Shown here in pieces: positions 30,952 to 45,485 of a stretch of 64,000 nt of DNA. The notes under the pieces are model-generated. The model saw nothing but the letters and a program-made list of their open reading frames with translations. It did no database searches and had not been told where the DNA came from. A program made the position numbers and the translations under genes. Within the stretch, counting starts at the first letter, position 1, and each line of letters begins with the position of its first letter. The stretch is from positions 18,351-82,350 of the forward strand of contig CAYMWP010000003.1 of the NCBI GenBank assembly GCA_964393895.1, written 5' to 3'. The stretch comes from an uncultured Anaerolineales bacterium (GTDB taxonomy: Bacteria > Chloroflexota > Anaerolineae > B4-G1).

Positions 30952-31176
30952 TTAGCAAAGTTGGCTTGGGGCGTATTCTAACGCCCTGTAGCGTGCTGCT
31001 AACTTTATCCAATCGTGTAGCTCCCAGCCCGGCGGCTCTTCCAGGTACCCGGCGATTTCTTCGGTGACTATCACGACCTCGCCGGTTTCCAGGTCTAGAT
31101 AGCACTGCATCTCCCAGGAACTGTTTTGGAAAGCGCTCTCTAGCTCTATCCAGTCAATCTCGAGTTTGCGGGTCAT
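30952..31176 (-). CDS. Small acidic protein, possibly UPF0158-like
   Basis: 74 aa ORF overlapping the recQ stop by 23 nt. The family assignment rests on weak recollection only. Confidence 0.4.
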   Translation of the reverse strand: MTRKLEIDWIELESAFQNSSWEMQCYLDLETGEVVIVTEEIAGYLEEPPGWELHDWIKLAARYRALEYAPSQLC

Positions 31177-34100
31177 TCGCCCCTTCTTCCTGGCGCTCGT
31201 GCACCAATTCGATCAATTCTGCTCCATACCGCTCCAGCTTGCGCGGGCCGACTCCCTTCAACTCAGCCAGAGCCTCCAGCGTGACAGGCCGGTGCGCGGC
31301 GATGGCCCTCAGGTGGCTATCGTGAAAGATGACGTAGGGCGCGACCTTTTGCGCGCGAGCCTGCTCCAGCCGCCAGGCGCGCAACTTTTGGAACAGCGCT
31401 TCGTCCACGTCCGGCCCTGCGCTCTCTTCTGGGGATGGTTTGCGTGACTGCGGCTCCCTCACCGGAGCGACCAGGCTATCCAACGCGGCCGGGTCTTGCA
31501 GCGCCGCCCGGCCTGCGGGGGCGAGCTCGAGCACATCGCCGCCGTGATAGAGCCGCCGCGCTTGCAGGAACTCGCCGCTTTCCAGGAGGCCCAGCATGCG
31601 CTCGACGGCCGCCGCCGAGCGAAAGGCCAGCTTTCCGAAACAGGCGTTCTCACGGGCTTTTTCCTTGAGGGGCTGCCTACCGTGACGCGCCTCATCGTCG
31701 CCGCGCAGGATGCGGGCCAGCGTGAGCCGTCCCCAGCTCCATTCCGCGTCCGCCACGCAGCGCAGAACGGTCAGCAGTTGCTCCCGCTCGCCGGGCAGGC
31801 CGGTGTCCGGCGGTGGCTGAATCTCGACGCAGTTATCACAGGCGTCGCAACGCTCGATGGCGCGCCCGCCCAGGTAAGAGTTGATGTAGCCGTGACGGCA
31901 GCGACGGGTGCGGGCGTAAGCCGTGATCTCGTCCACCCGCTGGGCCTGCACCGTCTCATACCGCTCCAGCAGCGTCTCGACCCGTTCGGCGGCGTCTGCG
32001 GGCGGCGGCGGCAGCTCCAGCAGCCAGTCCCGCCCGGCCGGGTAATAGTTCAGCCAGCCCGCGTCGGCCCACTCCAACATCCGCCGCTCCACGCCGTCGA
32101 GGGGCAGGTCGGCCCGCCGCGCCACGTCCGCCAGGTCGAGCGTCAGGGATTGGTCGGGCCGCAGGTGGGCGGCCTGGCGGAAGGCGTCAAACTCGTCTGG
32201 CAGGATACTGGCGATCTGTAGGGTCGTATCTTGCCTGACGGCGGCTGTCAGGCGGACGGTCCCGCTGCGGGGAAAATCGGGGCCGCGCCGTAGTAGACCT
32301 GCCTCCTCCAGCAAGCTCAGAGCGACCCGGATGCGCGTTCTGTCGGTTCGCAGGTCGCGCTCCAGGTTCGCCGCCACGATCCGGCCGGACGAGTGCTCAC
32401 CCAAACGGCGCTTGACGGCCCCGTAGACGGCCCGCAGGAACTCGACCGGCAGCGCGTCCCGGCGGATGCGACGGGACAGCACAGCTCGGTCCGACAGGGC
32501 GTACATCAACAGGCAGCGGGCGGGCAACCCATCGCGCCCGGCCCGTCCGGCCTCCTGGTAGTACGCTTCCAGCGAGTTGGCGGGGACAAAGTGAACGATG
32601 AAGCGAATGTCGGCCTTGTCAATGCCCAGGCCAAAAGCGATGGTCGCCACGACGACGCGGATGCGGCCGGCCATAAAGTCATCCTGCACCTCGGCCCGGT
32701 TGGAGATGCCGGCGTGGTAGTGACCGGCGTTGACGCCGTGAGAGCGCAGCAGCGCGGCCAGTTCCTCGCAGCGGGCGCGGGCGCCGGCGTAGATGATGCC
32801 GCTGCCCGGTTCGCTTTTGCAGAAGGACAGCAGGTGACGCAGTTTATCGTCGCTGGCGCGGGCGTAAAAGACCTCCAGTTGCAGGTTGGGGCGGGTCACG
32901 TCGCCGGCGACGACGCGCATGTTGCCCAGGTGGCGGATGATGTCGCGCCGCACGCGGGGCGGGGCGGTCGCCGTCATCGCCAGGAGCGGCGGGTTGCCCA
33001 GCGCCTGCCGCGCTCGCCCGATGGTGAGATAGTCGGGCCGAAAGTCGTGGCCCCACACACTGACGCAGTGGGCCTCGTCAATCACCAGCCGGTTGACGCC
33101 CGCCCGTCGCAGCGCGTGCAGAAAGGGGGGCTGGCGCAGCCGCTCCGGGGCGGCATAGAGCAGGCGGTAGCCGCCGTCGGTGACTTGCCCCAGCCGGGTG
33201 CGCAGCGCGTCCCGTTCCAGGCTGCTGTTGATGGTGGCGGCCCGGCCCCGCACCCCGGCCGGCAGCGAGTCCACCTGATCCTTCATCAGCGCGATGAGGG
33301 GCGAGATGACGAGCGTCGTGCCGCGCTCGGCCAGCAGGGCGGGGAGTTGGTAGCACAACGATTTGCCGCCGCCGGTCGGCAGGACGGTCAGCACGTCCTC
33401 GCCGCGCAGGACGCTGGCGATGGTCTCCAACTGGCCGGGCAGGAGGCTCTCGAAACCAAAGAGCCGCCGGATGGCTTCTGTGATGCGCTCCCGCTCCGCG
33501 TCGGAGACGGGGATTTGGTCAAAGGTGGGGAGGGGTTCGGTGGGTGGGGGTCCCTCCTCCTCCACGGGGCGCGGCGCAGGAGGCGGGCGGTAGTCCGGGG
33601 ACAGGGCGGCCCGCAGTTCGGCCAGTTCATCGGCGTGGCGGCGGGATAGCTCCGCCTCCAGGTCGGCGATGCGAGTCTCCTCGCCGCTGGCCCGAAAGTG
33701 ATCGCGCAACCGGCGCAGGTAGACGGCGGAGAGGGGGCTTTCGTCGGTCGCGGTACGCAGCAAGCGCACGGCGTAGCCGCTGGCCGTAATCCAGTCGTCG
33801 AGCAAGCGGTAGAGCGCGGCCATTCCCAGCAGATAGGCGCGGCTCTGAGGGCGCAGTTCGTTCAGGCGACGGTAGGCGGCCAGCGCGGCGTCGGTATCTC
33901 CCCGCTCCAGCTCGACCTCGCCCAGCAGTCCCCAGGCAGTCACGCTCTCTGGTTGTTCCCTGACCAAGTCGCGGGCGATCCGGTGGGCGGCATCCGAGTC
34001 GGTCCGGGCCAGGTGGACGCGGGCCAGCAGTGCGCGAGCGGTCATGGATGTCCTGATCTGCAACCGCTTTTCCATCACCATCAGCGCGTCGTCGGGCCGC

Positions 34101-34333
34101 TCCTGGGCCAGGAAGGCGCGCGCCCGCAGGTCTAGCAGCGAGACCAGGGAGGGGCGGGCCGGGATGAGCACGTCCAGGCAAGCGTGCAGGGTCTCCAGTT
34201 GCTCCCAGCGCAGGAGAAAGTTGAGCAGCCGGCTGCGCTCGCTGCCCGTCAGCCCGACCATCTGTCGCGGGGCTATCGCCAACTCGGCCAGCACGTCGCC
34301 ATTCGCAGATTCGCTATTCGTAAATTCGTTCAT
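31154..34333 (-). CDS. recQ: RecQ-family DNA helicase with an N-terminal TPR region and a C-terminal HRDC domain
   Basis: LPGQLETIASVLRGEDVLTVLPTGGGKSLCYQLPAL, DEAHCVSVWGHDFRPDY, YYQEAGRAGRDG, the Zn motif CRHGYINSYLGG...CDACDNC, and an HRDC-like C-terminus (LFQKLRAWRLEQA...). The N-terminal 290 aa or so are TPR-like. Confidence 0.9.
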   Translation of the reverse strand: MNEFTNSESANGDVLAELAIAPRQMVGLTGSERSRLLNFLLRWEQLETLHACLDVLIPARPSLVSLLDLRARAFLAQERPDDALMVMEKRLQIRTSMTARALLARVHLARTDSDAAHRIARDLVREQPESVTAWGLLGEVELERGDTDAALAAYRRLNELRPQSRAYLLGMAALYRLLDDWITASGYAVRLLRTATDESPLSAVYLRRLRDHFRASGEETRIADLEAELSRRHADELAELRAALSPDYRPPPAPRPVEEEGPPPTEPLPTFDQIPVSDAERERITEAIRRLFGFESLLPGQLETIASVLRGEDVLTVLPTGGGKSLCYQLPALLAERGTTLVISPLIALMKDQVDSLPAGVRGRAATINSSLERDALRTRLGQVTDGGYRLLYAAPERLRQPPFLHALRRAGVNRLVIDEAHCVSVWGHDFRPDYLTIGRARQALGNPPLLAMTATAPPRVRRDIIRHLGNMRVVAGDVTRPNLQLEVFYARASDDKLRHLLSFCKSEPGSGIIYAGARARCEELAALLRSHGVNAGHYHAGISNRAEVQDDFMAGRIRVVVATIAFGLGIDKADIRFIVHFVPANSLEAYYQEAGRAGRDGLPARCLLMYALSDRAVLSRRIRRDALPVEFLRAVYGAVKRRLGEHSSGRIVAANLERDLRTDRTRIRVALSLLEEAGLLRRGPDFPRSGTVRLTAAVRQDTTLQIASILPDEFDAFRQAAHLRPDQSLTLDLADVARRADLPLDGVERRMLEWADAGWLNYYPAGRDWLLELPPPPADAAERVETLLERYETVQAQRVDEITAYARTRRCRHGYINSYLGGRAIERCDACDNCVEIQPPPDTGLPGEREQLLTVLRCVADAEWSWGRLTLARILRGDDEARHGRQPLKEKARENACFGKLAFRSAAAVERMLGLLESGEFLQARRLYHGGDVLELAPAGRAALQDPAALDSLVAPVREPQSRKPSPEESAGPDVDEALFQKLRAWRLEQARAQKVAPYVIFHDSHLRAIAAHRPVTLEALAELKGVGPRKLERYGAELIELVHERQEEGANDPQTRD

Positions 34334-34337
34334 TCGC

Positions 34338-35048
34338 TCATTCGCTCCCGTAATCTGGTATCACGTGCACTCCGACGACGAGGGGCCAATACTCGCCCCG
34401 CCACTTGCGCCCCAGCCCCAGCGCCAGGTAGAGGGCCTCGGTCTCCAGGCGTTCGAAGAGTTCATCGTGCTCCAATGTCAGGTGGCCGCCTCTTGCGCCC
34501 AGCCAGGCCCGGCCCAGTGATTCCCATTTCAGGTCGGTGACGGTGATGCCGCGCTTGCCGGCGGCGCGGTGGCGGTTGTCCTCGCCCGCCAGCAGAAAGC
34601 CCATCCGCGCTTCGTACTTGCCAGAGTAGGCGTCCAGCGAGAAGTTGGCCCAGACGCGCTCCGGCTGCACCAGGCAGAGCGAGCGGGTGTGGTGGACAAG
34701 CACTTCCTCCGGGGCGCGGTCGAGATAGCGGGGGAAGAAACTGGCGCGCTTTTTCCCTTCCAGGCGGCGCAGCAGGCGCGGCCGGTGATGCACAAAGTCG
34801 GTGAGCCAGTCCTCGACGTGGGGTGGGTTGGGACGCGGCTCGATTAGATTCAGCTCGATCACGTCGCCGCACTGCACCAGCCGGCCATCGGCGTCGGTCA
34901 TGTCGCCCGGTTGGATGGTGTCAAAGTCGCGGATCGGGCGCACCCAGCGCAGGCCGGTCACCGGGTCGGGGTCGGTGGTGAAACCGGCGGTGCAGATGCC
35001 GCTGAGCATTTTGGTCATTGCCAGGATGAGGACTGGTTTAGGTGGCAT
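34338..35048 (-). CDS. Uncharacterised protein, possibly of the dual-OB-fold type
   Basis: Start moved to ATG 35048 (MPPKPVLILAMTKMLSGICTAGF...), because the longer ORF N-terminus is Pro/Arg-rich junk. It lies 4 nt from the recQ start. The family call is tentative. Confidence 0.5.
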   Translation of the reverse strand: MPPKPVLILAMTKMLSGICTAGFTTDPDPVTGLRWVRPIRDFDTIQPGDMTDADGRLVQCGDVIELNLIEPRPNPPHVEDWLTDFVHHRPRLLRRLEGKKRASFFPRYLDRAPEEVLVHHTRSLCLVQPERVWANFSLDAYSGKYEARMGFLLAGEDNRHRAAGKRGITVTDLKWESLGRAWLGARGGHLTLEHDELFERLETEALYLALGLGRKWRGEYWPLVVGVHVIPDYGSE

Positions 35049-35083: not shown

Positions 35084-35524
35084 TTACAGATGCGCGACGG
35101 TCAGCGCCGGCAGGTGCTTGGTCCAGTATTCGGCCACCAGGCGGCGGTGGCAGTGGTCGGCGGTCGGCTCGGCGCAGAGGAGACACGGGGCGCGGCGGCG
35201 GGCCAGGATGTCGCGCCCTATTTCCTCGGCGGACCGTTTCTTTAACAGCTGGAGGAAGCCGGTCACATAAGCGGCCCAATCCTCGTCCTCGCGGTAGGCG
35301 TCGAGGATCTCGGGCGTGGGGGACAGTTCGGGATGGTGCTCGTAGGCGATGTGGAACCCCTCGCGCAGCAGGAAATCCAGCGTGTCCCGCTTGGTGTAGC
35401 CGGCCAGGTGGGAGGTGTTGCGCAACCGCACGTCAATCACCGCGTCCACGCCGGCCCGGCGCAGTTGATTGATGAACTTTTCCAGGGGTTTCTCTTTGTA
35501 ACCGATGGTGTAGATGGTTGGCAT
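35084..35524 (-). CDS. DUF488 family protein
   Basis: MPTIYTIGYKEKPLEKFINQLRRAGVDAVIDVR... and CLLCAEPTADHCHRRLVAEY, the typical DUF488 layout. Start at ATG 35524. Confidence 0.8.
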   Translation of the reverse strand: MPTIYTIGYKEKPLEKFINQLRRAGVDAVIDVRLRNTSHLAGYTKRDTLDFLLREGFHIAYEHHPELSPTPEILDAYREDEDWAAYVTGFLQLLKKRSAEEIGRDILARRRAPCLLCAEPTADHCHRRLVAEYWTKHLPALTVAHL

Positions 35525-35570: not shown

Positions 35571-36077
35571 TTAGAAGAGGGAGAGTTGTTGGGCGATGGG
35601 TTCTCCCTCGATTTTCGCACCGTCGGGCTGGATGTGAAGCACGCGCACCCCGCGCGCCAGCAGGGTTTGGCTGATCAGCAGATGGCGGTGGCATTGACGG
35701 TGATCGCCCTCGCTGCACATGACGGCTACTCGCTCGGTGCGGGCCAGTTCGAGCAACCGGTCAATGCCGGCCTGGTATTCGTCGCTCTGCTCCACGCGCC
35801 GGTAGTCGGGGCGCTCCTGGCCGGGATCGTACAGGATCGGGTCGGACGGCCGTCCGCCGAGCGCGTCACCCATAAAGCGGTAGGCTATGCCGGCCTCTTC
35901 CAGGTCGCGGCCCAGCGTCTCCCGGTTGAACTGGTGTGTCCAACGGCTGTAGGGCTGACTGCGCACATCGGCCACGAGGGTTACCTCGTGCTGGCGCAAC
36001 AGATCAATAAAGGCCATCGTGTCGTGGTCGCTGTGGCCGATGGTGTAGACGAGTAGGTTGTTGCTCGGTTGTTCCAT
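35571..36077 (-). CDS. DUF488 family protein (second tandem copy)
   Basis: LVYTIGHSDHDTMAFIDLLRQHEVTLVADVRSQP... and VMCSEGDHRQCHRHLLIS. Confidence 0.8.
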   Translation of the reverse strand: MEQPSNNLLVYTIGHSDHDTMAFIDLLRQHEVTLVADVRSQPYSRWTHQFNRETLGRDLEEAGIAYRFMGDALGGRPSDPILYDPGQERPDYRRVEQSDEYQAGIDRLLELARTERVAVMCSEGDHRQCHRHLLISQTLLARGVRVLHIQPDGAKIEGEPIAQQLSLF

Positions 36078-36095: not shown

Positions 36096-36251
36096 TCAGG
36101 TTTCTTGCTGCGCCAGGTGCTTTTGATAAGCTTTCCATCCCGGGCACCATTTGATGTGCCAGTGCCAGAATCGGCCAAACAGCGATTTGGGACTGGCTTC
36201 CGCTCTTTTGCGCATAGGACAATCCTCGCAGCGGATCTGGCTTTTGCTCAT
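36096..36251 (-). CDS. Cys/Trp-rich miniprotein (51 aa) of unknown function
   Basis: ATG 36251 is preceded by GAGGAGG. Translation MSKSQIRCEDCPMRKRAEASPKSLFGRFWHWHIKWCPGWKAYQKHLAQQET carries paired CxxC-like and CPGW motifs. Confidence 0.55.
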   Translation of the reverse strand: MSKSQIRCEDCPMRKRAEASPKSLFGRFWHWHIKWCPGWKAYQKHLAQQET

Positions 36252-36267: not shown

Positions 36268-36909
36268 TCAAATCGTTGGATCACGCGGTTCCAGTGCGGC
36301 TACTCCGGCGATGAACTTGCGTTTTCCTCCGTGAGATGGATGTCTGATGTAGGGAGCCGGCCGGCCGATCTTGGCCAGCGCCCGCTCCGCCACGCGCCCG
36401 ACGGCGTAGGGTCGCGCCGACGGGAACAGGGCCAGGAAGCAACGCAGCACTTTTAGCCCGTCGCCTAAATCCTGACCTGGGGCGCGGTTGGAGAGCGGGC
36501 CTTGCTCGCCGAACGGGTGCCAGGGAAAGGCGTTCCACAATATGCAGTCCGCCCGTTCGCTCAAAGGCTGCCACACGATCTTGGCCGAACGCTCGACCCA
36601 CAGGCTTGCCGCCGTGCTGCTGCGGGCCAGGTCTTGACCCCGCGTCCAGTTCAATCGCTCCGGGCCGACCAGTTGCGCTTCGCAGGTGAACGGAATGCCG
36701 GAAAAGCGGCAACCGGCGTAGCCGGCTCCCTCGCCTACCAGCACGTAGCGCGCGCCGGAGAATATCTCCAGGTAACGGCGTAGGTTGCGGCGGCGTATCT
36801 CTGCCCCGTTAGGGACATCCAGTTCGTGATCAACGTCGCGGTACTGGTTGAACGCCCTGGGGTTGCTGTAGGCGTTCAGTAGCCCAAATAGCTCATCACT
36901 GTCAGTCAC
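36268..36909 (-). CDS. Uracil-DNA glycosylase superfamily protein (non-canonical family)
   Basis: VLVGEGAGYAGCRFSGIPFT matches the UDG-superfamily motif A region. HPSHGG lies near the C-terminus. ATGA overlap with the recJ stop. Confidence 0.75.
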   Translation of the reverse strand: MTDSDELFGLLNAYSNPRAFNQYRDVDHELDVPNGAEIRRRNLRRYLEIFSGARYVLVGEGAGYAGCRFSGIPFTCEAQLVGPERLNWTRGQDLARSSTAASLWVERSAKIVWQPLSERADCILWNAFPWHPFGEQGPLSNRAPGQDLGDGLKVLRCFLALFPSARPYAVGRVAERALAKIGRPAPYIRHPSHGGKRKFIAGVAALEPRDPTI

Positions 36910-39233
36910 GATGTTATCAACGTCTCCTTGGCGGCGCGGGCAAAGTGAGCGCGGTAGGCGGCTGTCTCTCTCAGCAGTTTCTCCAAGCGAGCGGCCGCTT
37001 GGTTCAGCCCTGCGCCTGATTTCTGGTCGCCGATCGTCAGATGTGCCTCGTCGTCTGTGCCTTGAGCCTTCAGGATCCCCTTGGCCTCCAGCCAGGCTAA
37101 CCCGGCCCGCACGGTCGCCTCTCGCTGAGCGGTGGCCGCCGCCAGGGTGGAGATGCTGACCCGGCCTCGATTGGCGTTAAGCGCACGTTTGGTCAGTCCG
37201 AGCAACCGTTTCAGGAACGCCTCGAAATCGTCCAGCCCCGGCTCTGTACCAAAGAGATAGATCGTCTCCGGCGAGACCTTGTCCAGCGCGGCCTGCAATT
37301 CTTTGGGGCCGGGGGGCGTGGTCCAGATGGCGAGAGCTTGTGATGGCTCTAGCTCTCGCCTATCGCGACCCGCGACTTGCGCTCTGGCCTCCGCTTCGCT
37401 CCACACTTGCACTTGCTTCTGCTCTCGCAACTGTTCCAGCAACGTATGCGGGTGAGATTCTTGCCTATAGTCCACCACCTGCAACCTGCGACCGGAGATT
37501 GGGGGATGGAGATCGGGGATGGGAGATCTGACGCGGGCATCTACCCACACCACCTGCACCTCTCGCTGACCGCGATAGTCGCTGGCCTGCACGGCGTAGG
37601 CCAGATCGAACTGACCCTGCGGCAACGAGGACTCGTCCCCCCGCCACCAGAGCACTTTTTGCGTCGCGCCAGCCTCGTCCTCCACGACCAGCCGCAGATG
37701 CTCGCCGGTACGGCCTATGGTGGTGTGGCTTTCCAGCCTCAGCCCCTTGCTCGCCAGAGTCAGCGCGGGATTGCCCGGCCCGAAAGGAGCCAGCCGCTCC
37801 AACTGCTCCACCAGGTCGAGTGACAGGTCGGAGAGCGGCAGGTAGCCATCTATGGGGAGTGTGTTAGACCCCAAGGGTCTCAGAAGACCCTTGGGGTCTC
37901 TCGTTAGCGCGCGACTGAATTCGGGGATGCGCTCTGGCTCGATGCTCAACCCGGCCGCCATTGGATGGCCGCCGAAACGGACCAGCATCTCGCGCTGGGC
38001 GGCTATGGCGGCGTGAATGTCACAGCCTGGGATGGAACGAGCTGATCCCCGGCCCAGCTTGCCGGGAGGGGTGGCGATGAGGATCGTGGGGCGGTTGTAC
38101 TGCTCGGCCAAGCGCCCGGCCACGATGCCGATGACGCCAGCCGGCCAATCGGGATGGCTCAGCACCAGCGCCTTGTACTCCAGCAATGAGGGATCGCGCT
38201 CGATCTGCGTCTGTGCTCCTTGAAGGACCTGATCGCATAGCAGCTTGCGCTGGGCGTTCAACCCGTCCATCTCGGCGGCCAGGATACGGGCGCGGGCCAG
38301 GTCGGCGGTGGTCAGAAACTCGACGGCAATGGTGGCGTCGGCCAACCGGGCCAGGGCGTTGAGGCGGGGAGCCAATGCAAAGCCGATGTGCTCCTCAGTG
38401 AGCCGCTCAGGGTTGAGACCGGCGGCCTCTATCATTGCCTGGAGGCCCAACCGCTCGGTGTGACGCAACGCCTCCAGGCCGCGTTGGAGCAGGTGGCGGG
38501 TGTCGCCGGTTTGGGTCGCCACGTCGGCCACGATGCCCAGGGCCACCAGATCGAGGTATTGTGCTGCCTCTTCCGCTCGGCTCGCTCGCTCGTACAGGGC
38601 CTCGGCCAGTTTGTAGGCCACGCCCACTCCCGGAAGTTCGCGCAATGGATGGGTTTCTGGCAGCAGTTTGGGATTGACCACAGCGTGGGCTTCCGGCAGG
38701 GTCGGGGGCAGATCGTGATGGTCGGTGACGATCACGTCCACGCCCTGCGAGCGGGCGTAGGCAATCGCTGCGTGGGCGGTGACGCCGGTATCGCAGGTCA
38801 GCACCAGTTGCACCCCCTCGGCGATGAGCCGTTCCAGTATGGGAGTGTGAAGCCCGTGCCCCCCTTCCTCACGGTTGGGGATGTAGTAGGTGACGGCCGT
38901 GCCCTGCGGCGAGCCTCGTCGAGCCACCAGCTCCCGCAGTGTGGAGACCAGGATAGTCGTCGCCGTCTGGCCGTCCACGTCAAAGTCGCCCCAAACGCAG
39001 ATCGCCTCGCCCTGGCGGATGGCGCGCTCCAATCGCTCTGCGGCTCGAACCAGGTGCGGCAGTTCGGCCGGCGGGGTGGGCTGATAGCGGGCGGGGTCGA
39101 GGAAGGCGCGGGCCGTTTCCACGTCGGTGAACCCGCGTCGGGCCAGTGTCTCTGCCACCAGCGGGTGCCCGCCGACGGCAGAGCGCAGCGCGTCAGGTAC
39201 TCGCACTTTCTGTGGTTCGATCCAATCTTTCAC
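36906..39233 (-). CDS. recJ: Single-stranded-DNA-specific exonuclease RecJ
   Basis: DHH motifs (WGDFDVDGQTATTIL, TCDTG, VIVTDHH) and DHHA1 (FGGHPMAAGLSI), plus a long C-terminal extension. Confidence 0.9.
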   Translation of the reverse strand: MKDWIEPQKVRVPDALRSAVGGHPLVAETLARRGFTDVETARAFLDPARYQPTPPAELPHLVRAAERLERAIRQGEAICVWGDFDVDGQTATTILVSTLRELVARRGSPQGTAVTYYIPNREEGGHGLHTPILERLIAEGVQLVLTCDTGVTAHAAIAYARSQGVDVIVTDHHDLPPTLPEAHAVVNPKLLPETHPLRELPGVGVAYKLAEALYERASRAEEAAQYLDLVALGIVADVATQTGDTRHLLQRGLEALRHTERLGLQAMIEAAGLNPERLTEEHIGFALAPRLNALARLADATIAVEFLTTADLARARILAAEMDGLNAQRKLLCDQVLQGAQTQIERDPSLLEYKALVLSHPDWPAGVIGIVAGRLAEQYNRPTILIATPPGKLGRGSARSIPGCDIHAAIAAQREMLVRFGGHPMAAGLSIEPERIPEFSRALTRDPKGLLRPLGSNTLPIDGYLPLSDLSLDLVEQLERLAPFGPGNPALTLASKGLRLESHTTIGRTGEHLRLVVEDEAGATQKVLWWRGDESSLPQGQFDLAYAVQASDYRGQREVQVVWVDARVRSPIPDLHPPISGRRLQVVDYRQESHPHTLLEQLREQKQVQVWSEAEARAQVAGRDRRELEPSQALAIWTTPPGPKELQAALDKVSPETIYLFGTEPGLDDFEAFLKRLLGLTKRALNANRGRVSISTLAAATAQREATVRAGLAWLEAKGILKAQGTDDEAHLTIGDQKSGAGLNQAAARLEKLLRETAAYRAHFARAAKETLITS
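37866..37897. repeat. Palindromic element copy inside the recJ coding sequence
   Basis: GACCCCAAGGGTC tcagaa GACCCTTGGGGTC has perfect 13-bp arms. It is read in frame as DPKGLLRPLGS. Confidence 0.85.
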
Positions 39234-39236: not shown

Positions 39237-40088
39237 TCAGTACTCGATCTCTGCGATCTGCTCAAAGTCAAGCGATATGTCGAAATCTTGGGTCAATTCG
39301 TCCTCCATCTTGTCCAACGGGCCGGCCTCGACCCCGCGCTGGCACAGCGAGCGGTAGCGGCAGTAGCGGCAGTTCCGCTCGTCGGACGTGCGCGGGTAGG
39401 GAGGATCGCCGATCTGCCCTACGAGCGAGGTCAGGTAAGCCTCGTCCGCCTTGTACTGGGCCGCGCTGTAGGGGAAGCGGGCGGGATCGTCTGGAAAGTT
39501 GGCGAACCAGTAGACCATCTCCACCTGTTCGGGCGCGAGCGGCTGCCCGCCGTTGAGGTGGTCGCCCGCCAGCACCAGCAGGTAGGGGTAGACCTTGGTC
39601 TGCAACCGCTCGGCCAGGTATTTGCGCTTGGGTCGTCTGCGGGACGTCTTCCAGTCCAGGATGACGGCCCGGCGCCCAGGGTCTACTGTGACGAGGTCGT
39701 ACTTGGCGACCAGGCGGTAGTCGCCCAGCGGCGCGGACAGGACGATCTCTGGATGGCGAGACGCGGGTAGATTCTCTGGCCCGTGCGTCAAATAGTTGTG
39801 CCACCAGCGGCGCAGGTCGGCGTCGGTTGCGGCGCACGCGAGTTGTTCTTCTGGGATGCCCAGCAGGTGTTGGTGCATCAGGCGGTGGAAGGCGGCTCCT
39901 TGCTGCATGTGGCGCTCGTTTTCCAGGGCGGGTTGCGCCTCGTGGGCGGGCCAGTCCACGTGCTCCACGTAGCCGAGTTGGAAGCGGCGCGGGCAGTCGG
40001 CGTAATCCTGGAGGCTGGCCTGATTGTATGAAGTAGGGAGTAGGGAGTAGGGAGTAGGGGGAGTGGAGGGAGTAGGTGTTGTTGTCAT
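39237..40088 (-). CDS. PD-(D/E)XK (Cas4/AddB-like) nuclease with a C-terminal Cys cluster
   Basis: Start at ATG 40088 (MTTTPTPS...). YADCPRRFQL at the N-terminus, DLV...ILDWKT in the core, and CRYCRYRSLC at the C-terminus, typical of Fe-S PD-(D/E)XK nucleases. Confidence 0.8.
   Translation of the reverse strand: MTTTPTPSTPPTPYSLLPTSYNQASLQDYADCPRRFQLGYVEHVDWPAHEAQPALENERHMQQGAAFHRLMHQHLLGIPEEQLACAATDADLRRWWHNYLTHGPENLPASRHPEIVLSAPLGDYRLVAKYDLVTVDPGRRAVILDWKTSRRRPKRKYLAERLQTKVYPYLLVLAGDHLNGGQPLAPEQVEMVYWFANFPDDPARFPYSAAQYKADEAYLTSLVGQIGDPPYPRTSDERNCRYCRYRSLCQRGVEAGPLDKMEDELTQDFDISLDFEQIAEIEY
40032..40059. repeat. Tandem heptamer array (AGTAGGG x4)
   Basis: Four perfect AGTAGGG units, followed by degenerate units up to about 40077. 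They encode the nuclease N-terminus on the minus strand. Confidence 0.9.
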
Positions 40089-40540
40089 TGGCGGCGCTCC
40101 GTGCTGGCGACGAGGCCGTTGAGCAGGCGGCCTACTGTCTCTGATTGGGCCATCAAATCGGTATAGGATGGAATGTATTTCAGGTCTTGGGATGACTTTC
40201 CTGAAAAAAGGTGTTGGTTTGTTCGTCGGTGGGGATAAAATGCCCAAAAACCAGGTTTTTTGGTGAGATATTCCCACAAACACGTCAATTTTGAGCCAAA
40301 AGTGGGACGCTGTCCCATAAAACCATTGAAAAACCTGGTTTTTTCAGTGGGGTCTTGGGATAGGATGAAAAAGTATTCTAGCTCTTCCAGAGAGCCTTCC
40401 GAGATGTTGTAGAAGCGGATCTTGTCTCGAACCCCGCGTCGTTTGAACCCCTCGGCGATGTTGGCCGGTACTGAGACCGCCGCCCGTTTATGAGCTTCCT
40501 GCCACGTCTCTAGTTGTCGAAAATGCGAGATCTTCCCCAT
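40085..40540 (-). CDS. Four-helix-bundle protein (23S rRNA intervening-sequence protein family), apparently decayed
   Basis: RAAVSVPANIAEGFKRR...GSLEELEYFFILSQD...VGRLLNGLV matches the family. About 28 aa are missing after WQEAHK, and 56 unrelated codons are inserted. The ORF is still open. Confidence 0.55.
   Translation of the reverse strand: MGKISHFRQLETWQEAHKRAAVSVPANIAEGFKRRGVRDKIRFYNISEGSLEELEYFFILSQDPTEKTRFFNGFMGQRPTFGSKLTCLWEYLTKKPGFWAFYPHRRTNQHLFSGKSSQDLKYIPSYTDLMAQSETVGRLLNGLVASTERRQ
40194..40350. mobile_element. MITE-like 157-bp insertion flanked by an 11-bp direct repeat
   Basis: GGTCTTGGGAT occurs at 40183-40193 and 40351-40361. The insert carries the palindromes AAAAACCAGGTTTTT and AAAAACCTGGTTTTT, and its ends are CTGAAAAAA and TTTTTTCAG. 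Confidence 0.45.
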
Positions 40541-40545: not shown

Positions 40546-40566
40546 CTACTCCTTACTCCCTACCCC
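40546..40566. repeat. Tandem heptamer array (TACTCCY x3), inverted relative to 40032-40059
   Basis: TACTCCT TACTCCC TACCCCC, the reverse complement of the permuted AGTAGGG unit. It encodes the helicase C-terminus and stop. Confidence 0.8.
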
Positions 40567-42819
40567 CTCTTCCTCCCAGAACGTCTGCAAAGCAATGAAC
40601 GGCGCTGCCGGCTGCTGGTCGCCGCGCCGGCCGGTGTTCCAGGTGACGATCAGTTCCTTCTTGGCGCGCGTGATGCCCACGTAGAGCAGGCGCAGCCGCT
40701 CGGCGGCGTATTCCTGCCGCGCCTCCTGGGTCACTTGGCGCTCCTGGTATTCGTACACGGGCAGGTCGCCCTCGGCCAGGACCGCCTCCAACTGGGCCAG
40801 GGCCTCCGCCTCCAGGTTTATCCGCTCGCGCACGAACCATTTCTCCGAGATGAACTGGTCGTGGGGGCGGGCGGAGGGAAAGTTATAGTTGTTGACCGAC
40901 ATCAGGTAGACCCGGTCCCATTCCAGCCCCTTGGCCTTGTGGATGGTGGCGATCACGACCTTGCCCTTGTGCCTTTCGGGGTCAAAGCCTCTGTCGTCGG
41001 CGCTCAGCCCCAGGAAGCGGCGCTCGTTGCGGGCCACGACCGCCAGTTCCTCGACCAGCTCCGGCAGTCGCCAATCGGGATGGCTGGCGCTCATGCGCCG
41101 CAGGACGCCGGCCAGTTTGTGAGCCACGGCCAGGTCGGCCGGTTCCTCGAACAGGTCTTGGGCCAACGTGAGGATCAGTTGATCCACCGGCAGCAGGGTG
41201 CCCCCCTGCCAGCGCCGAATCAATACGCGGAACTCGGCCAGTTGCTCGTGGATCCTTCGGCCATACTCAGGACAGGTATTGGGGAACTCGGCGGCCATCT
41301 CCAGCCCGGCCAGCCAGTCCCGATCCACCTGGGGCCACACGAAATCCTCCACCCGCCGACATTTGCTCAACCTCCTGGCAATCCACTCGAGTTGTTCCCT
41401 GGTCTCTTTGTCCTCGCGGTCGTCTCGCCGCCACACTTTGTAGGCGGTCGCCAGTTTACTGGGGGAGGCGGGGTCGGCCAGGTACTTGAGGACATTGCCC
41501 AGAGCGCCGGCCGTCTCGCGGGTCTCTCGCGTGCTGCGCAGGAGCTCGACGTATTCCAGGCCGCGTCTCTTCAACTCGGCCGCCAGCTCAAAGCCGCGAT
41601 TGTTGCGCGGCACGAGCACGGCCACCGTCTGGTCGGGGCGGTCTGGCAGCCAGCTTGATAGGGAATCGGCCACGGCCCGCAGCTCTTCCTGGGGTGTGAA
41701 CTTTTGAGCGACGATGCGCACTTTGTCGGGGTCGTCGGGCGGGTTGGGCTGGGGGTCGCCGGGCGGGGCCGGCTCGATGTGCGGTGGGGTGAGCGCCTCC
41801 CGCACTGCCTCCACCGGGTGCCGGGTTTGCGTCCAGTCAATGAGATAGTTGGCCAGCGCGATGATGCTGCGGGTGGAGCGGCCAGAGTTGGGCAACTCGC
41901 GGGCTTCCACCTCCTCCTCTTCCAGGAAGGTGCGCAGGTATTTCGGATCGGCGGTGGTAAAGGTCTCATAGATGGCCTGGTTGGGGTCGCCGACGCGCAC
42001 CCAGTTGCCGCCTGGCCCGCAGAGGAGGCGCAGGATTTGCTCCTGCAGGCGGCTGCTATCCTGGGCCTCGTCCTCCAGGATAAAGGGCCATTGGTGCTGC
42101 AAGCGTTCCAGCAGGTCACGGTCCATCTCCAGGGCTTGCAGCGCCAGGCGGATCAGGTCGTCGAAATCCACCGCGCCGCGATAGCGCAGCGCGCGCTGGT
42201 AGTCGGCATAGATGGCGGCTCCCATCTCGACCAACGGGAACGAGGGCGAGCGTCGTTCCAGGCGGCCCTGGATTTTATCCGGCGTGCCCTCCAGGTCCTT
42301 GGCCCGCTTGATAAAGCTGCGGGCGACGCCGGTCACCAGGTCGGGCCACTGACCGCGGCGCACCCAGTTCTGTTTTCCCTCTTCCAGGTCTGGCGATATG
42401 AACTCGTCGGCGACGTGAGGGTTGGCCCGCAGCCAGGCGGCCGCCGCCTCCTGTAGGATCCCGTCCGCCTCCCGCTCGTCCACGATCTGGAAATCGTCCG
42501 CGAGGCCGACCAGCGCCGGCCGCTCGCGGACGATGTCGTGGGCCAGGCCGTGCAGTGTGCGCACCCGGTAGCCCAGGTTGGGCAGCAGCCCGCGCTCCTG
42601 GACAAAGGCGGCCACGCGGCCGGCGAAATTATCCACGGCCGAGTTGACCAGCGTCACGACCAACACTTCTTGATCGTCCGCGAGCCGTCCGCTGGCGACG
42701 ATTTGCGCGGCCAGGGCGGAAAGCGTGAGCGTCTTGCCGCTGCCGGGCACGGCCGCGACGCCCATCTTGCCGCCGATATAGTCGAGAACTTGCTGCTGTT
42801 TGGGTCGTGGTTTAAACAT
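40546..42819 (-). CDS. UvrD/PcrA/AddA-like superfamily 1 DNA helicase
   Basis: Walker A AVPGSGKTLTLSA, FILEDEAQDSS, VIATIHKAKGLEWDRVYL and LLYVGITRAKKEL. Confidence 0.9.
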   Translation of the reverse strand: MFKPRPKQQQVLDYIGGKMGVAAVPGSGKTLTLSALAAQIVASGRLADDQEVLVVTLVNSAVDNFAGRVAAFVQERGLLPNLGYRVRTLHGLAHDIVRERPALVGLADDFQIVDEREADGILQEAAAAWLRANPHVADEFISPDLEEGKQNWVRRGQWPDLVTGVARSFIKRAKDLEGTPDKIQGRLERRSPSFPLVEMGAAIYADYQRALRYRGAVDFDDLIRLALQALEMDRDLLERLQHQWPFILEDEAQDSSRLQEQILRLLCGPGGNWVRVGDPNQAIYETFTTADPKYLRTFLEEEEVEARELPNSGRSTRSIIALANYLIDWTQTRHPVEAVREALTPPHIEPAPPGDPQPNPPDDPDKVRIVAQKFTPQEELRAVADSLSSWLPDRPDQTVAVLVPRNNRGFELAAELKRRGLEYVELLRSTRETRETAGALGNVLKYLADPASPSKLATAYKVWRRDDREDKETREQLEWIARRLSKCRRVEDFVWPQVDRDWLAGLEMAAEFPNTCPEYGRRIHEQLAEFRVLIRRWQGGTLLPVDQLILTLAQDLFEEPADLAVAHKLAGVLRRMSASHPDWRLPELVEELAVVARNERRFLGLSADDRGFDPERHKGKVVIATIHKAKGLEWDRVYLMSVNNYNFPSARPHDQFISEKWFVRERINLEAEALAQLEAVLAEGDLPVYEYQERQVTQEARQEYAAERLRLLYVGITRAKKELIVTWNTGRRGDQQPAAPFIALQTFWEEEGVGSKE

Positions 42820-42829: not shown

Positions 42830-42857
42830 ACGTAAGACGTAAAACGTGAAACGTAAT
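42830..42857. repeat. Tandem degenerate heptamer array (ACGTRAN x4)
   Basis: ACGTAAG ACGTAAA ACGTGAA ACGTAAT, immediately upstream of the helicase start at 42819. Confidence 0.85.
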
Positions 42858-43000
42858 GATTGGGGTGTGTTTCAAACGAGTTGTGGATTGGGTGGCATAG
42901 CCCCTCGTGGGCACCTTATAGGCCATTTAACGGGCACAAGGCCCTACACTACAACCGAAATGAAACACGCCCTAATGATTTTCGGGCCACTCTCTTGCGC

Positions 43001-43029
43001 ATTACGTATTACGCATTACGCAATTACGT
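43001..43029. repeat. Tandem degenerate heptamer array (ATTACGY x4), inverted relative to 42830-42857
   Basis: ATTACGT ATTACGC ATTACGC AATTACGT, overlapping the 3' end of the upstream helicase gene. Confidence 0.85.
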
Positions 43030-45127
43030 TATCACGGAGGACACGCTGGATGGCTTGCAGCAGCGGCCCTTTTTGCTCGCGGCCGTTCTCGCCTAGCTCG
43101 CTCAACCCCAGGTAGACCCGGCGGCGGCAGCGGCGGACGAGGCCCTGGACGAGGCGGTGCAGTGTCTCCTGGCGAGCCTCGTGCTCGGCGGCGTCAGTCC
43201 AGACGTCGCCCCTCGGCCAGCCCCGGCTGAGCACGTAGGGCTGGGTGAGCGGTTGGTACAGCCTCTCCCACCAGCCGCGGCTGCCGACGTCGAGCCAGAA
43301 CTGGACGTCCACCGGACGGTTGCTCATCAGAAAGGTGTAGGCCGGGGCCAGGAGCACCGCGTCCTGGGGGCGGAGCTGCCAACTGTGGATGTATTGGGCG
43401 GCGATGACGCCGTCCTGAACCATCTCGATGTACTCTTGTCCCAGTGGTTTGTCGTCGTCGCACCGCGCCACCCAGCGGAATTTTTGCACCGATTCGATCA
43501 GGTTGAACGCCACCCGTCCGGCATCATAATTGCGGTGGAAGCCGAATCCGGCCTGTGAGAGCACTTCGCCGAACAGGCCGCTCAGGAAATGATCCAGTTC
43601 CGCCGCCAGGCCCGCAGCGTATTCCTCGACCCAGGTGCGCAGCCACTCGTACCGCTCGCCCAACACAAAAGTGAGGCGCTCCTTCATCTCTGGCACGATC
43701 TGGTCGAAGGAGGTCAGCGCGGGACGGCCATCAGTGGGGCGGTAGACGATCTGGGTCAGCAGTTGCGCCCGCACCAGGTCCAGGCCGTCAATCGCCTGCA
43801 TCAGGGCGTAGGCCACGTCAAAGCTGGTGGGGCAGATACCCCAATCCGGGTGGGCGATGGCGGTCAGCGTCAGCAGGCAGCGGGTGGCGGGTTCATCTCG
43901 CAGGGCGCGCGAGGGGCGGTGGGAGCGGGTGGGGACGTCCCGCGCTTCCAACCGGTTGGTCAGCGCAAAGCGCAGCGCGTCCGGTAGGAAGGGAGCCAGC
44001 ACGACGATCTCCTGCGGCGGGACGCCTTCGTCCTGCACCAGCTTGGCGATTTCGTCGGTGACCCAGTCGAGCATTTCGGGGTAGTAGCGGTGATAGGCGT
44101 ATGAGAGTGGAGATTGGGGCGACGCCTGATGGGCCGCTTGGGAGATTGGAGAATGTTCTCTGGGCCGGTTCAGGCTGCGGGCCAACTCTGCTCCGAGGGC
44201 CTCCATATCCGGCGAGGTGACGAATGACTTGGTGAAGGCGATCCGCTCGTCGCACAGCTCGCGCAGGGCGTGACCGCTCTCGGTGTCGGCGCCCAGGAAG
44301 CGACGGTAGCCGGCCTCGCGGTCATAGATCAGCAGCGCCGATTGGCAGTGGGGCAGCCAATCCCGCAGCAGGTCGTGGGCCACGGGGGTATCTTCCTCGA
44401 CGTTGTCGGCGATGACGTGGGTGTAGGTCTCCAGCAAATAGTTGCGGCACAGCGGCATGGTCCACAGGTGGTTGCGGAACAGCTCGAGCTGGAGCGAAAA
44501 GTCGAGCAGGTTGTGGGTCAGGCAGTAGCGGCGGAAGAGCGCGGCGCACTCCTGGGCTTCGTCGTAGATGCGGCGCTGGCTCGATTCACCCCCCCATGCT
44601 GCCTTGAGCCGCCGGCCGATCTCGGCGTGGGGAAAGCCGACCACGGCGGCCTTGTTGAGGTTATCCAGAATCTGGCTGTAGAGGCGATTGTGGTCAATAG
44701 TGATGGTCTCAAAATAGCCCTGGTCGAGCAGGGGGCGCACCAGGCGGGCCATATAGTACTGGGCCGTCTCCAAAGTGAGAAAGGTGGGCGGGTCCTCGGG
44801 ATGGCCAAAGCCGCCCTCCTCGACCACCAGCGGCCAGAAGAGATCAACCGTGCGCTGGGCCAGGCCGCCCACGGTCGAGACGGTCACCTCCCCGCCCGCG
44901 CGGACGGTCGCGCGGCGCAGCGCCTCGTAGTAGGGGGAGGCCAGCGTGCGCTGGGGCACGATGACCAGGATGGCATCGGCCGGGACGCCCGCTTCGATCA
45001 GGTGCAGGAGGCGGGCCACGCCGGCGGTGGTTTTGCCGGCGCCGGCTGGCCCTTCGAGGAAGAGCTTGCGCTCGATGGACCGCTCAATGAGAGAGCGCTG
45101 GTGGTCTGTGGGAACAAATTCTGGCAT
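43016..45127 (-). CDS. UvrD/AddB-like helicase-related ATPase (second subunit candidate)
   Basis: Walker A LEGPAGAGKTTAGV and VIADNVEEDTP (DExx-like). Large and divergent. Adjacent to the UvrD-like helicase and the PD-(D/E)XK nuclease. Confidence 0.75.
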   Translation of the reverse strand: MPEFVPTDHQRSLIERSIERKLFLEGPAGAGKTTAGVARLLHLIEAGVPADAILVIVPQRTLASPYYEALRRATVRAGGEVTVSTVGGLAQRTVDLFWPLVVEEGGFGHPEDPPTFLTLETAQYYMARLVRPLLDQGYFETITIDHNRLYSQILDNLNKAAVVGFPHAEIGRRLKAAWGGESSQRRIYDEAQECAALFRRYCLTHNLLDFSLQLELFRNHLWTMPLCRNYLLETYTHVIADNVEEDTPVAHDLLRDWLPHCQSALLIYDREAGYRRFLGADTESGHALRELCDERIAFTKSFVTSPDMEALGAELARSLNRPREHSPISQAAHQASPQSPLSYAYHRYYPEMLDWVTDEIAKLVQDEGVPPQEIVVLAPFLPDALRFALTNRLEARDVPTRSHRPSRALRDEPATRCLLTLTAIAHPDWGICPTSFDVAYALMQAIDGLDLVRAQLLTQIVYRPTDGRPALTSFDQIVPEMKERLTFVLGERYEWLRTWVEEYAAGLAAELDHFLSGLFGEVLSQAGFGFHRNYDAGRVAFNLIESVQKFRWVARCDDDKPLGQEYIEMVQDGVIAAQYIHSWQLRPQDAVLLAPAYTFLMSNRPVDVQFWLDVGSRGWWERLYQPLTQPYVLSRGWPRGDVWTDAAEHEARQETLHRLVQGLVRRCRRRVYLGLSELGENGREQKGPLLQAIQRVLRDNVIA

Positions 45128-45134
45128 ATTTGAC

Positions 45135-45485
45135 TCAACACGTCAAATGGAGCGCGGCGGCGACGGCTCGCTCTTCGCGCAGGCGGTTGTACGTCTCCAC
45201 GGCTTCCTCGGTAGGCAGGGCAACGAGTTCGATGTCGGCGGCCTGGAGCGCCTGCCTGGTTTCCGCCGTCACTCTCATTCGGCTAAAAGTGCCCTGCCCC
45301 ACGACGAGCAGTTCTGGCGCGGCCTCGAATACCGGCCCAAGGTCGCCGGGGTGTAGCCGATGCCCCTCCTGGCGCCACCACCCACCGACCACTCGATCTG
45401 GCAAGATGATGACGTCCAGGGTGTGAGCCTGCCCATCAATGACGATGTGCCCAGAACGGTAGGACTCTATCTGTGGGTTGGACAT
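45135..45485 (-). CDS. Mth938-like (DUF498) domain protein
   Basis: 116 aa. IESYRSGHIVIDGQAHTLDVIILPDRVV...LLVVGQG... resembles the Mth938/NDUFAF3 fold family. Confidence 0.65.
   Translation of the reverse strand: MSNPQIESYRSGHIVIDGQAHTLDVIILPDRVVGGWWRQEGHRLHPGDLGPVFEAAPELLVVGQGTFSRMRVTAETRQALQAADIELVALPTEEAVETYNRLREERAVAAALHLTC

Follow-up and report, generated by a model that had tools for sequence, protein, structure and literature searches.

Two conserved DNA-processing modules, one pairing a DUF488-DuOB cassette with RecQ, lie side by side in a co-directional gene array of an Anaerolineales bacterium

Does a run of closely packed, co-directional genes for DNA-processing proteins represent one functional system, or a meeting of parts with separate histories? 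The question is raised by a 64,000-nucleotide (nt) window, the whole stretch of DNA analyzed here and the frame for all coordinates below, from an uncultured Anaerolineales bacterium of the phylum Chloroflexota. Thirteen genes, among them genes for helicases, nucleases and a glycosylase-like protein, follow one another on its minus strand (30952-45485; hereafter the array). A sequence-only reading had described the array as a single super-operon, either a housekeeping module for end resection and recombination or an undescribed system of DNA surveillance and defense against foreign DNA. The inventory behind that reading was accurate: all 13 open reading frames (ORFs) were confirmed, the junctions that it quoted (45127/45135, 39233/39237, 36906/36909 and 34333/34338) are exact, and nearly all of its domain labels were upheld by Pfam, NCBIfam and PADLOC scans of the window proteins. 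As to function, our results indicate, with a probability of roughly 65%, that the array is not one system and that it consists of two independently conserved, vertically inherited DNA-processing modules, together with hitch-hiking genes, that came to be juxtaposed in an Anaerolineae/Thermoflexia-like lineage of the Chloroflexota. We infer a housekeeping rather than a defense role, and the parts of the array most likely serve housekeeping repair; the earlier view of an end-resection and recombination function holds broadly for the separate modules and fails for the array as one unit. The modules, referred to as module A (45127-36906) and module B (36077-31154), are made up of the following genes, with lengths in amino acids (aa):

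Module A, gene 1: 43016..45127, minus strand; divergent SF1A (UvrD-like) ATPase, 703 aa, with a weak PF00580 match (E = 3e-6)
Module A, gene 2: 40546..42819, minus strand; UvrD/PcrA-type SF1A helicase, 757 aa, with PF00580 (1.8e-42), UvrD_C and UvrD_C_2
Module A, gene 3: 39237..40088, minus strand; stand-alone Cas4/AddB-type PD-(D/E)XK nuclease, 283 aa from M66, with PF12705/PDDEXK_1 (4e-27)
Module A, frequent gene 4: 36906..39233, minus strand; RecJ 5'-3' single-stranded DNA (ssDNA) exonuclease, 775 aa, with DHH, DHHA1 and RecJ_OB
Module B, gene 1: 35571..36077, minus strand; DUF488a, 168 aa, with PF04343 (1e-24) and PDC-M45B (7e-54)
Module B, gene 2: 35084..35524, minus strand; DUF488b of the DUF488-N3a subclade, 146 aa from M33, with PF04343 (4e-20) and PDC-M45C (3.5e-44)
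Module B, gene 3: 34338..35048, minus strand; the dual-OB protein DuOB, 236 aa from M78, with PF22557
Module B, gene 4: 31154..34333, minus strand; TPR-RecQ helicase, 1059 aa, with TPR_16, DEAD, Helicase_C, RecQ_Zn_bind and HRDC

The evidence that separates the modules comes from two surveys of gene neighborhoods, covering 157 loci in total. The DuOB survey took one genome per GTDB species and yielded 77 loci, almost all of them in Chloroflexota, which were searched by tblastn with all 13 window proteins; the ATPase survey was a metagenome scan that gave 80 loci. In the DuOB survey a locus was counted as having room when at least 2 kb of flank was available, and 46 of the 77 loci have at least 6 kb upstream. 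Linkage within each module is strong. The DUF488 pair lies directly upstream of DuOB in 58 of 62 loci with room, RecQ lies directly downstream in 59 of 60, and module B is syntenic in about 95% of the loci with enough flank. In module A, the gene next to the ATPase is UvrD in 50 of 51 loci with room, 36 of 44 have the nuclease, and RecJ comes after the nuclease in 19 of 31 (about 60%). Across the modules no linkage was seen: tblastn found RecJ, the UDG-like gene, the miniprotein, the nuclease, UvrD, the ATPase or DUF498 in the flanks of none of the 77 DuOB loci, and none of the 80 ATPase loci contains the UDG-like gene, DUF488, DuOB, RecQ or DUF498. The nearest sequenced relative, a member of the Thermoflexia (GCA_011192155.1), retains only the overlapping RecJ-UDG-like pair and has different neighbors on both sides of it, and a UDG-like orthologue of 72% identity (L010) is solitary, between a KARI-aldolase gene and a LacI-family gene. 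Because the surveys, the nearest relative and this orthologue each break the array, we conclude that it is a lineage-specific juxtaposition of two conserved modules and several singletons. All close homologues of the window proteins come from metagenome-assembled genomes of Anaerolineae, Thermoflexia or other Chloroflexota.

These results do not sustain a super-operon or system of 13 genes, since the full linkage was seen in this lineage only and the two halves are never joined in the 157 loci. The sequence-only reading had held that linkage unique to this genome would count against a common system; the linkage of the whole array is of that kind, and that of the two sub-modules is not. Of the genes that it had proposed to check for co-occurrence with RecJ or RecQ, the two DUF488 genes and DuOB do co-occur with RecQ; the UDG-like gene and the miniprotein, like RecJ, fall outside that set.

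The compactness of the array is real for most, though not all, of its length. Three start codons were refined before the gaps were measured (nuclease to 40088, DUF488b to 35524 and DuOB to 35048, each probably the correct start), and the refined starts match gene calls on public contigs from the same organism. From the upstream end, the DUF498 and ATPase genes are 7 nt apart, the ATPase and UvrD genes 196 nt, and UvrD and a decayed four-helix-bundle ORF 5 nt. That ORF overlaps the nuclease gene by 4 nt, 3 nt separate the nuclease from RecJ, and RecJ overlaps the UDG-like gene by 4 nt. The remaining distances are 16 nt (UDG-like/miniprotein), 18 nt (miniprotein/DUF488a), 46 nt (DUF488a/DUF488b), 35 nt (DUF488b/DuOB) and 4 nt (DuOB/RecQ), followed by a 23-nt overlap of RecQ with the gene for a small acidic protein. 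The minimal spacing claimed earlier is thus found at most junctions and not at the ATPase/UvrD gap or in the 457 nt between UvrD and the nuclease, an interval occupied by the decayed ORF. Nor are the 13 genes alone in sharing this strand: the minus-strand run covers about 34 kb, from about 21.3 to 55.2 kb, and takes in unrelated genes, among them those for an EamA-family transporter, polyphosphate enzymes, a maltose acetyltransferase, a PIN toxin pair, a DEAD-box RNA helicase, a radical-SAM protein, an RlmI-like methylase and a DinG-like helicase. In some other Chloroflexota (L096, L098 and L099) module A itself is interrupted, with co-directional insertions of a gene for an M28 peptidase, an FG-GAP protein or a hybrid histidine kinase among UvrD, the nuclease and RecJ. 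Since unrelated genes can be co-directional even inside a conserved module, the tight packing seen here does not amount to shared function, and the same caution applies to tight co-directional packing in these genomes at large. We regard the 13-gene neighborhood as an ordinary product of chance, and its sub-modules as the content that can be tested.

Module A resembles the AddAB and AdnAB helicase-nucleases in that it encodes, side by side, two UvrD-like subunits of the SF1A type, of which one is degenerate. The degenerate subunit, the 703-aa ATPase, keeps an intact Walker A motif (GPAGAGKT), and its remaining helicase motifs are degenerate; it matched nothing in NCBIfam or in a PDB sequence search, and hhalign gave only a low probability for its profile against the UvrD protein of the window. 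Its AlphaFold model is of low confidence (predicted local distance difference test, pLDDT, 54.7) and was used for family-level fold matching alone, in which the top Foldseek matches were all UvrD, PcrA, Rep, AdnB, RecB or AddB (E = 1e-15 to 1e-10). Identity among the Chloroflexota orthologues of this protein is 56-85%, against 12-17% to the UvrD-family structures matched by the model, and the ATPase and its module have at least 509 metagenome matches in Chloroflexota. The second subunit, UvrD, like the first, has no nuclease domain according to Pfam. It falls below all equivalog cut-offs for PcrA, Rep, UvrD, AddA and RecB, and in the comparison with the addA, addB and recB models it scores 72-90 bits against cut-offs of 696-861.

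The third protein of module A supplies a RecB/Cas4-type PD-(D/E)XK nuclease domain that, like AddB, is accompanied by a C...CxxCx5C set of cysteines. The four cysteines (C32 and those of NCRYCRYRSLC) and a D...DxK motif can be read in its translation, and the earlier label of a Cas4-like Fe-S nuclease agrees with the PF12705 match and with this AddB-type, putatively Fe-S-binding set. Matches to Cas4 in PADLOC and NCBIfam are weak, as is that to a model of a nuclease associated with pAgo, and the PDB sequence search gave no useful match. RecJ passes the equivalog TIGR00644 with 503 bits (cut-off 396.9) and continues for about 200 aa past the end of that model (residues ~570-775; 36906-37520), a C-terminal extension that is kept in the orthologues of L012 and L013. 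In both of these loci the ATPase and UvrD genes overlap, as do the UvrD and nuclease genes.

Where AddAB and AdnAB have one nuclease fused to each subunit, module A has one separate nuclease of 283 aa; it also differs from them in scoring below the addA, addB and recB equivalogs and in having RecJ as its usual fourth gene. We place it outside AddAB in the strict sense because its one nuclease stands unfused and none of these equivalog cut-offs is passed. By analogy, module A is most likely a split, three-polypeptide counterpart of AddAB/AdnAB that would act with RecJ in the resection of double-strand ends. The two motor-like subunits would engage the end, the single nuclease would cut one of the unwound strands, and RecJ would degrade the 5' strand. 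Such a three-polypeptide AddAB-like machine, together with RecJ, seems to be what a large and poorly studied phylum ordinarily uses for end resection.

In module B, the two DUF488 proteins are assigned differently within their family. DUF488a reaches 25.2 bits against the DUF488-N3a model PF22751, just under the cut-off of 27, and is assigned to DUF488 in general, and DUF488b passes with 41.2 bits. A PDB sequence search with DUF488a returned nothing useful. Both proteins are probably active enzymes, since an invariant D-[VI]-R and an invariant C-x-E-x5-C-H-R (C117, C125, H126, R127) are kept in each. With 61 bits (cut-off 27), DuOB matches PF22557 along the entire profile, from position 1 to position 210 of 210. 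Its family is small, with 191 clusters at 50% identity found at E <= 1e-3 among 1.84 billion representatives, and no relevant match was obtained by PDB sequence search. The RecQ protein has strong DEAD (3e-24), Helicase_C (3e-14) and HRDC (4e-25) domains and a zinc-binding domain (32.6 bits against 25), and its RQC region scores only 18.2 bits against a cut-off of 23. Two non-canonical features of the protein are a TPR region at its N-terminus and, between Helicase_C and the zinc-binding domain, an insert of about 190 aa. In one lineage (L004-L005, gene 10841-14389) the TPR-RecQ orthologue has an additional N-terminal DUF559 (Vsr-like endonuclease) domain.

That DuOB and RecQ work as partners is suggested by their synteny, by the covariation of their percent identities over the 77 loci (r = 0.88) and by gene fusions. 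P0365, from a bacterial metagenome contig (L181), joins DuOB to a RecQ core with zinc-binding, RQC and HRDC domains; its RecQ part is 41% identical to the RecQ of the window over 793 aa, and DuOB stands in place of the TPR region. The same DuOB-RecQ layout is found in P0503 from a Candidatus Syntrophoarchaeum-like archaeon, of which a cluster member (OFV67186.1) is annotated as RecQ. Each of these two fusion genes is preceded by DUF488 and DUF488-N3a genes with overlapping stops and starts. In P0474, from another archaeon, DuOB is joined to RQC and HRDC, the helicase core being absent, and DUF488 and DUF488-N3a genes come after it; its neighbors include MCM, TBP, aRF1 and eIF2-beta. In a further locus (L185), a distant DuOB of 36% identity has a DEAD helicase gene 8 nt downstream. 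A RecQ-coupled chromosomal form of the cassette is present in Chloroflexota and Archaea, with RecQ either a separate protein bearing a TPR region or fused to DuOB. This coupling of the DuOB-DUF488 cassette to RecQ across domains of life, confirmed by the fusions, is new in that we did not find it in the literature searched.

RecQ helicases with OB-fold partners are familiar from SSB-RecQ in bacteria and from BLM/Sgs1-Top3-RMI1/2 in eukaryotes, and module B is like them in pairing a RecQ that has zinc-binding and HRDC domains with a dedicated OB-fold protein. It is unlike them in that no relationship of DuOB to SSB or RMI can be detected by sequence, a linked topoisomerase is missing, the partners include two obligatory DUF488 proteins, and RecQ bears the TPR region and the insert of about 190 aa. 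We consider module B most likely to be a RecQ-centered unit for the processing of DNA ends or gaps. RecQ would unwind DNA, and DuOB, to judge from the fusions, would hold ssDNA or a DNA end while tethered to the helicase, covalently in the fusion proteins and through the TPR region here. In such a putative complex, the Cys/His/Arg site of the DUF488a/b pair, whose conserved residues are of a catalytic type, may strip a phosphate-linked group from the DNA terminus or transfer it, a putative phosphatase-type chemistry. The conserved partnership suggests that unwinding by RecQ feeds a terminus-modifying activity, and, backed as it is by independent fusions, it offers a first concrete clue to the function of DUF488 and DuOB, families represented so far by Pfam and PADLOC entries.

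In the Anaerolineae, module B is about 60-80% identical across the 77 species, with one copy seen per locus; for the orthologues in general, identities of about 60-85% hold over dozens of species. The flanks in relatives are ordinary (ValRS, sigma-70, ffh, rimM, topA and dprA), and no restriction-modification (RM), BREX or CRISPR genes lie beside module B in the window. The high conservation, the single syntenic copy per locus and the ordinary flanks lead us to favor a role in genome maintenance.

A link between module B and defense nevertheless deserves attention, because its first three genes correspond to a proposed defense cassette. PDC-M45 (Payne et al., bioRxiv 10.1101/2024.01.29.577857) is a PADLOC candidate made up of three families, one of 145 untested candidates that were proposed from their embedding in loci of BREX, DISARM or type I RM. 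In the window, the families A, B and C are adjacent according to the PADLOC models, so that the hint of defense in the sequence-only reading has a counterpart in the DUF488 pair and DuOB, which match PDC-M45 in a row, and does not extend to the whole array. The match of DuOB to PDC-M45A is weak (1.5e-9) and covers model positions 5-87 of 230 only. The cassette of the window does not adjoin known defense systems; it is flanked by the RecJ/UDG-like pair, RecQ and the polyphosphate genes. We take PDC-M45 to be the same as the DUF488-N3/DuOB systems of Burroughs and Aravind (2023), who reportedly predicted DNA-end processing in conflict systems for the DUF488 clade. Plasmid contexts taken from PLSDB show the cassette in the following settings:

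Allochromatium plasmid: DuOB-DUF488-DUF488, between Csx16/Cas1 and Csm6
Agrobacterium plasmid: DuOB-DUF488-DUF488, with CBASS (HORMA and an AAA-family ATPase), ImmA, TcmP and an integrase
Rhodothermus marinus plasmid pRMAR01 (L175, 6983-10756): DUF488-DUF488-DuOB, the order of the window, 123 nt upstream of a cas4-cas1 fusion
Rhodovastum linear plasmid: DuOB-DUF488-DUF488, with a zinc-finger protein and a giant SNF2 protein
Acinetobacter (L179) and Citrobacter (L180) plasmids of 10-23 kb: DuOB-DUF488-DUF4326, with otherwise just replication, partition and toxin-antitoxin genes

The locus that follows the cassette on pRMAR01 is a type III CRISPR locus with the cas4-cas1 fusion, cas2, cas6, csx2 and csm6. 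In the small-plasmid cassettes the place of the second DUF488 is taken by DUF4326, which the laboratory of Burroughs and Aravind has described as a clade of the rhodanese-phosphatases (PMC9503650); both points are consistent with the reported placement of DUF488 in that superfamily. The window shares with PDC-M45 the adjacent, co-directional DuOB, DUF488 and DUF488-N3a genes, and with the Rhodothermus plasmid their order as well. The two forms differ in their company: RecQ accompanies the cassette in none of the PLSDB contexts examined, and the PDC-M45 and plasmid forms occur without it in CRISPR, CBASS or toxin-antitoxin surroundings, whereas the trio of the window is tied to TPR-RecQ in nearly all relatives (59/60). 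The DuOB proteins also differ, that of the window scoring 61 bits against PF22557, three plasmid copies 195-220 and the Rhodothermus copy 43, which marks the window DuOB as a divergent branch. Searches by tblastn with the window DuOB and with a distant DuOB found no match on plasmids, and a plasmid-type DuOB found none in phages.

These observations allow a tentative proposal, which we hold to be possible and no more probable than that: the DUF488 pair and DuOB would form a so far uncharacterized machine for processing DNA ends, performing phosphatase or phosphotransfer chemistry on a terminus held by a dual-OB clamp, of which a RecQ-coupled chromosomal form would serve maintenance and a RecQ-less mobile form would serve defense or spacer acquisition. 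The position of the plasmid cassette beside cas4-cas1/cas2 may reflect a link to spacer acquisition. Since the cassette without RecQ lies beside CRISPR adaptation genes and CBASS, its chemistry could bear on the exchange of parts between defense and repair. If the proposal is true, what the window contains is the repair-side counterpart of an immune module or else that module's ancestor.

How, then, do other explanations of the array compare with two separate modules? That all 13 genes form one DNA-surveillance or anti-foreign-DNA system, the alternative offered by the sequence-only reading, is in our estimation extremely improbable. Co-direction, mostly tight spacing and generic PADLOC matches to the defense models GajB, DpdF/PsyrT, Cas4 and PDC-M45 agree with it, whereas the halves are linked in none of the 157 loci, the nearest relative and the 72%-identical UDG-like orthologue break the array in different ways, the GajB, DpdF and Cas4 matches reflect generic UvrD, RecQ and PD-(D/E)XK cores, RecJ is a bona fide equivalog, and unrelated genes share the co-directional stretch of about 34 kb. 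A Gabija-like or Cas4-like defense role for module A, in place of end resection, is very unlikely. The UvrD protein matches GajB models with E values down to 6.6e-45, the nuclease has its weak matches to Cas4 and to the pAgo-associated nuclease, and in L013 the module adjoins SIR2-STAND and TIR genes. Against these points, a GajA-type OLD/TOPRIM ATPase is absent, the GajB matches reflect a general likeness to UvrD, module A is very widespread among Chloroflexota and conserved there (the 509 or more matches and 56-85% identity given above), recJ is linked to it in 19 of 31 loci, and in L012 it lies among the housekeeping genes ffh, rpsP, rimM, dprA, topA and xerC. A third alternative would leave module A to housekeeping and make module B alone an anti-phage or anti-plasmid system, a RecQ-armed PDC-M45 that processes the ends or ssDNA of invaders. 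We consider this unlikely. The strong matches to PDC-M45B and PDC-M45C, the derivation of PDC-M45 from BREX, DISARM and type I RM embedding, the plasmid trios beside Csm6/Csx16/Cas1, cas4-cas1/cas2 and CBASS, and the DuOB-DUF488-DUF4326 cargo of small plasmids all speak for it, as does the archaeal fusion P0503, upstream of which lie genes for a HerA-like ATPase and a Dam-type methylase. The Anaerolineae copies, however, are conserved, single and surrounded by housekeeping genes, an archaeal copy lies amid MCM, TBP and aRF1, RM, BREX and CRISPR neighbors are absent from the window, PDC-M45 is itself an untested candidate, and the window DuOB matches PDC-M45A weakly and in part and has no tblastn match on plasmids.

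Somewhat unlikely, in our judgment, is an adaptive juxtaposition, in which RecJ, RecQ, the glycosylase and the AddAB-like module would be combined in one damage-inducible local repair operon. Cooperation of RecQ with RecJ is established in the RecFOR pathway of Escherichia coli, where the two are the classical resection pair of the RecF pathway. From the nuclease to the small acidic protein, nine genes follow one another at distances of at most 46 nt and with overlapping stops and starts, the nearest relative has the RecJ/UDG-like overlap too, and a promoter and terminator scan, which is uninformative for Chloroflexota, found no terminator-like site between RecJ and RecQ. Yet the arrangement occurs in one lineage only, and unrelated genes are routinely packed co-directionally in these genomes, even inside module A. 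Several of these observations, and a few others, weigh against our preferred reading of two separate housekeeping modules. The nine closely spaced genes may well be co-transcribed, and for this reason a local co-regulation of RecJ and RecQ is possible. The RecQ-less trios on plasmids beside type III CRISPR, cas4-cas1/cas2 and CBASS, and the HerA-like ATPase and methylase genes at P0503, point towards defense, and because of the CRISPR and CBASS company of the RecQ-less cassette a defense role for module B keeps some weight. Within module A, the model of the 703-aa protein, a candidate "AddB-like" partner subunit, is of low confidence (pLDDT 54.7), and the protein may or may not have lost its ATPase activity. 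The phosphatase-type chemistry attributed to module B is likewise affected: an hhalign comparison of DUF488 with E. coli RapZ gave a weak match (2% probability), in which the DVR/DVR and Cys...HR regions align; DUF488 is said, by Burroughs and Aravind in 2023, to belong to the rhodanese-phosphatase superfamily; and the literature searched yielded no functional study of DUF488, DuOB or PDC-M45.

The two-module interpretation leaves several elements of the array outside the conserved linkages, of which the UDG-like gene, the miniprotein and DUF498 are hitch-hikers:

45135..45485, minus strand: DUF498/Mth938-domain protein, 116 aa (PF04430, E = 3e-23)
42838..43020, no strand assigned: imperfect inverted-repeat element of about 185 nt, with two nested inverted-repeat pairs, filling the ATPase/UvrD gap
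40085..40540, minus strand: decayed four-helix-bundle ORF of the 23S rRNA intervening-protein (IVP) family, 151 aa (PF05635 and TIGR02436, profile positions 36-81 only)
36268..36909, minus strand: UDG-superfamily protein with a predicted SMUG1-like fold, 213 aa (AlphaFold model and Foldseek)
36096..36251, minus strand: 51-aa miniprotein with CxxC...C (no Pfam or NCBIfam match)
30952..31176, minus strand: small acidic protein, 74 aa, in some loci a fifth gene that follows RecQ (no Pfam or NCBIfam match)

The UDG-like protein has no match to Pfam PF03167, and a PDB sequence search with it gave nothing useful; some homologues of 74% identity do match PF03167, and some carry the NCBI name uracil-DNA glycosylase. 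An AlphaFold model built from 29 homologues (pLDDT 76, predicted template-modeling score 0.79) found its best Foldseek matches in SMUG1 structures (5h9i, 5h93 and 1oe4; E 3e-5 to 4e-4, probability 1.0, template-modeling score 0.5-0.6), followed by UdgX and family-4 UDGs. The predicted fold is thus closest to SMUG1 of Geobacter, human and Xenopus, and residues resembling motifs A and B are present, whereas identity to SMUG1 is just 14-20%. Invariant motifs are GE..GY.GCRFSGIPFT, WNA.PWHP and IRHPS, which include the motif-A-like GE..G...F and the motif-B-like HPS; the low-confidence loops of the model (residues 62-76 and 134-146) coincide with conserved motif regions. The fold match and these motifs support the original assignment to the UDG superfamily. 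The RecJ/UDG-like overlap was found here and in the nearest relative (L091) only. RecJ has an established deoxyribose-phosphate-removing activity in E. coli, and the pairing of RecJ with the UDG-like protein fits base-excision repair.

DUF498 is a local neighbor outside both conserved modules, with a homologue in none of the 80 ATPase loci; the upstream flank reaches 1 kb or more in 55 of them. The miniprotein is lineage-specific, its tblastn matches at E <= 1 lying solely in contigs of the same organism, and it may or may not be a real gene; we rejected it as a member of module B, having found a homologue in no related locus. The small acidic protein has homologues immediately after RecQ in L017, L028, L031 and L033 (55-72% identical) and shorter matches in L002, L003 and L035.

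The four-helix-bundle (IVP/Avd-like) ORF is broken by palindromes at 40229-40363 and keeps an ATGA stop/start overlap with the nuclease gene. It was rejected as a regular member of module A, since none of the 80 ATPase loci contains it. L007 and L008, contigs from two independent ENA assemblies of the same organism, start or break at this ORF, which suggests a repeat or strain variation. The inverted-repeat element in the ATPase/UvrD gap could be an insertion resembling a miniature inverted-repeat transposable element or a structured RNA; its inverted-repeat 20-mer occurs at a single place in the window, where 0 are expected, and no Rfam match was found in the window, this element included.

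Directly downstream of the array, a polyphosphate cluster on the minus strand (22787-30796) encodes a CYTH-HTH-CHAD protein, an adenylate kinase, two PPK2 proteins, PPK1 and a metallophosphoesterase fused to a Ppx/HD domain. Upstream, at 46363-47092 on the minus strand, a 137-aa PIN-domain protein preceded by a 107-aa ORF without a family match looks like a VapBC-type pair, situated between the acetyltransferase and the DEAD-box RNA helicase. The minus-strand genes farther upstream (47575-55225) encode this DEAD-box helicase, a YgiQ-type radical-SAM protein, a PUA/RlmI-like methyltransferase and a DinG/XPD-like helicase (Helicase_C_2). Two very large ORFs of 1333 aa and 2187 aa lie on the plus strand at 7768-18369. 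The last part of the window (60001-64000) has a G+C content of 0.50-0.53, compared with 0.59-0.70 elsewhere in the window, and may be foreign DNA.

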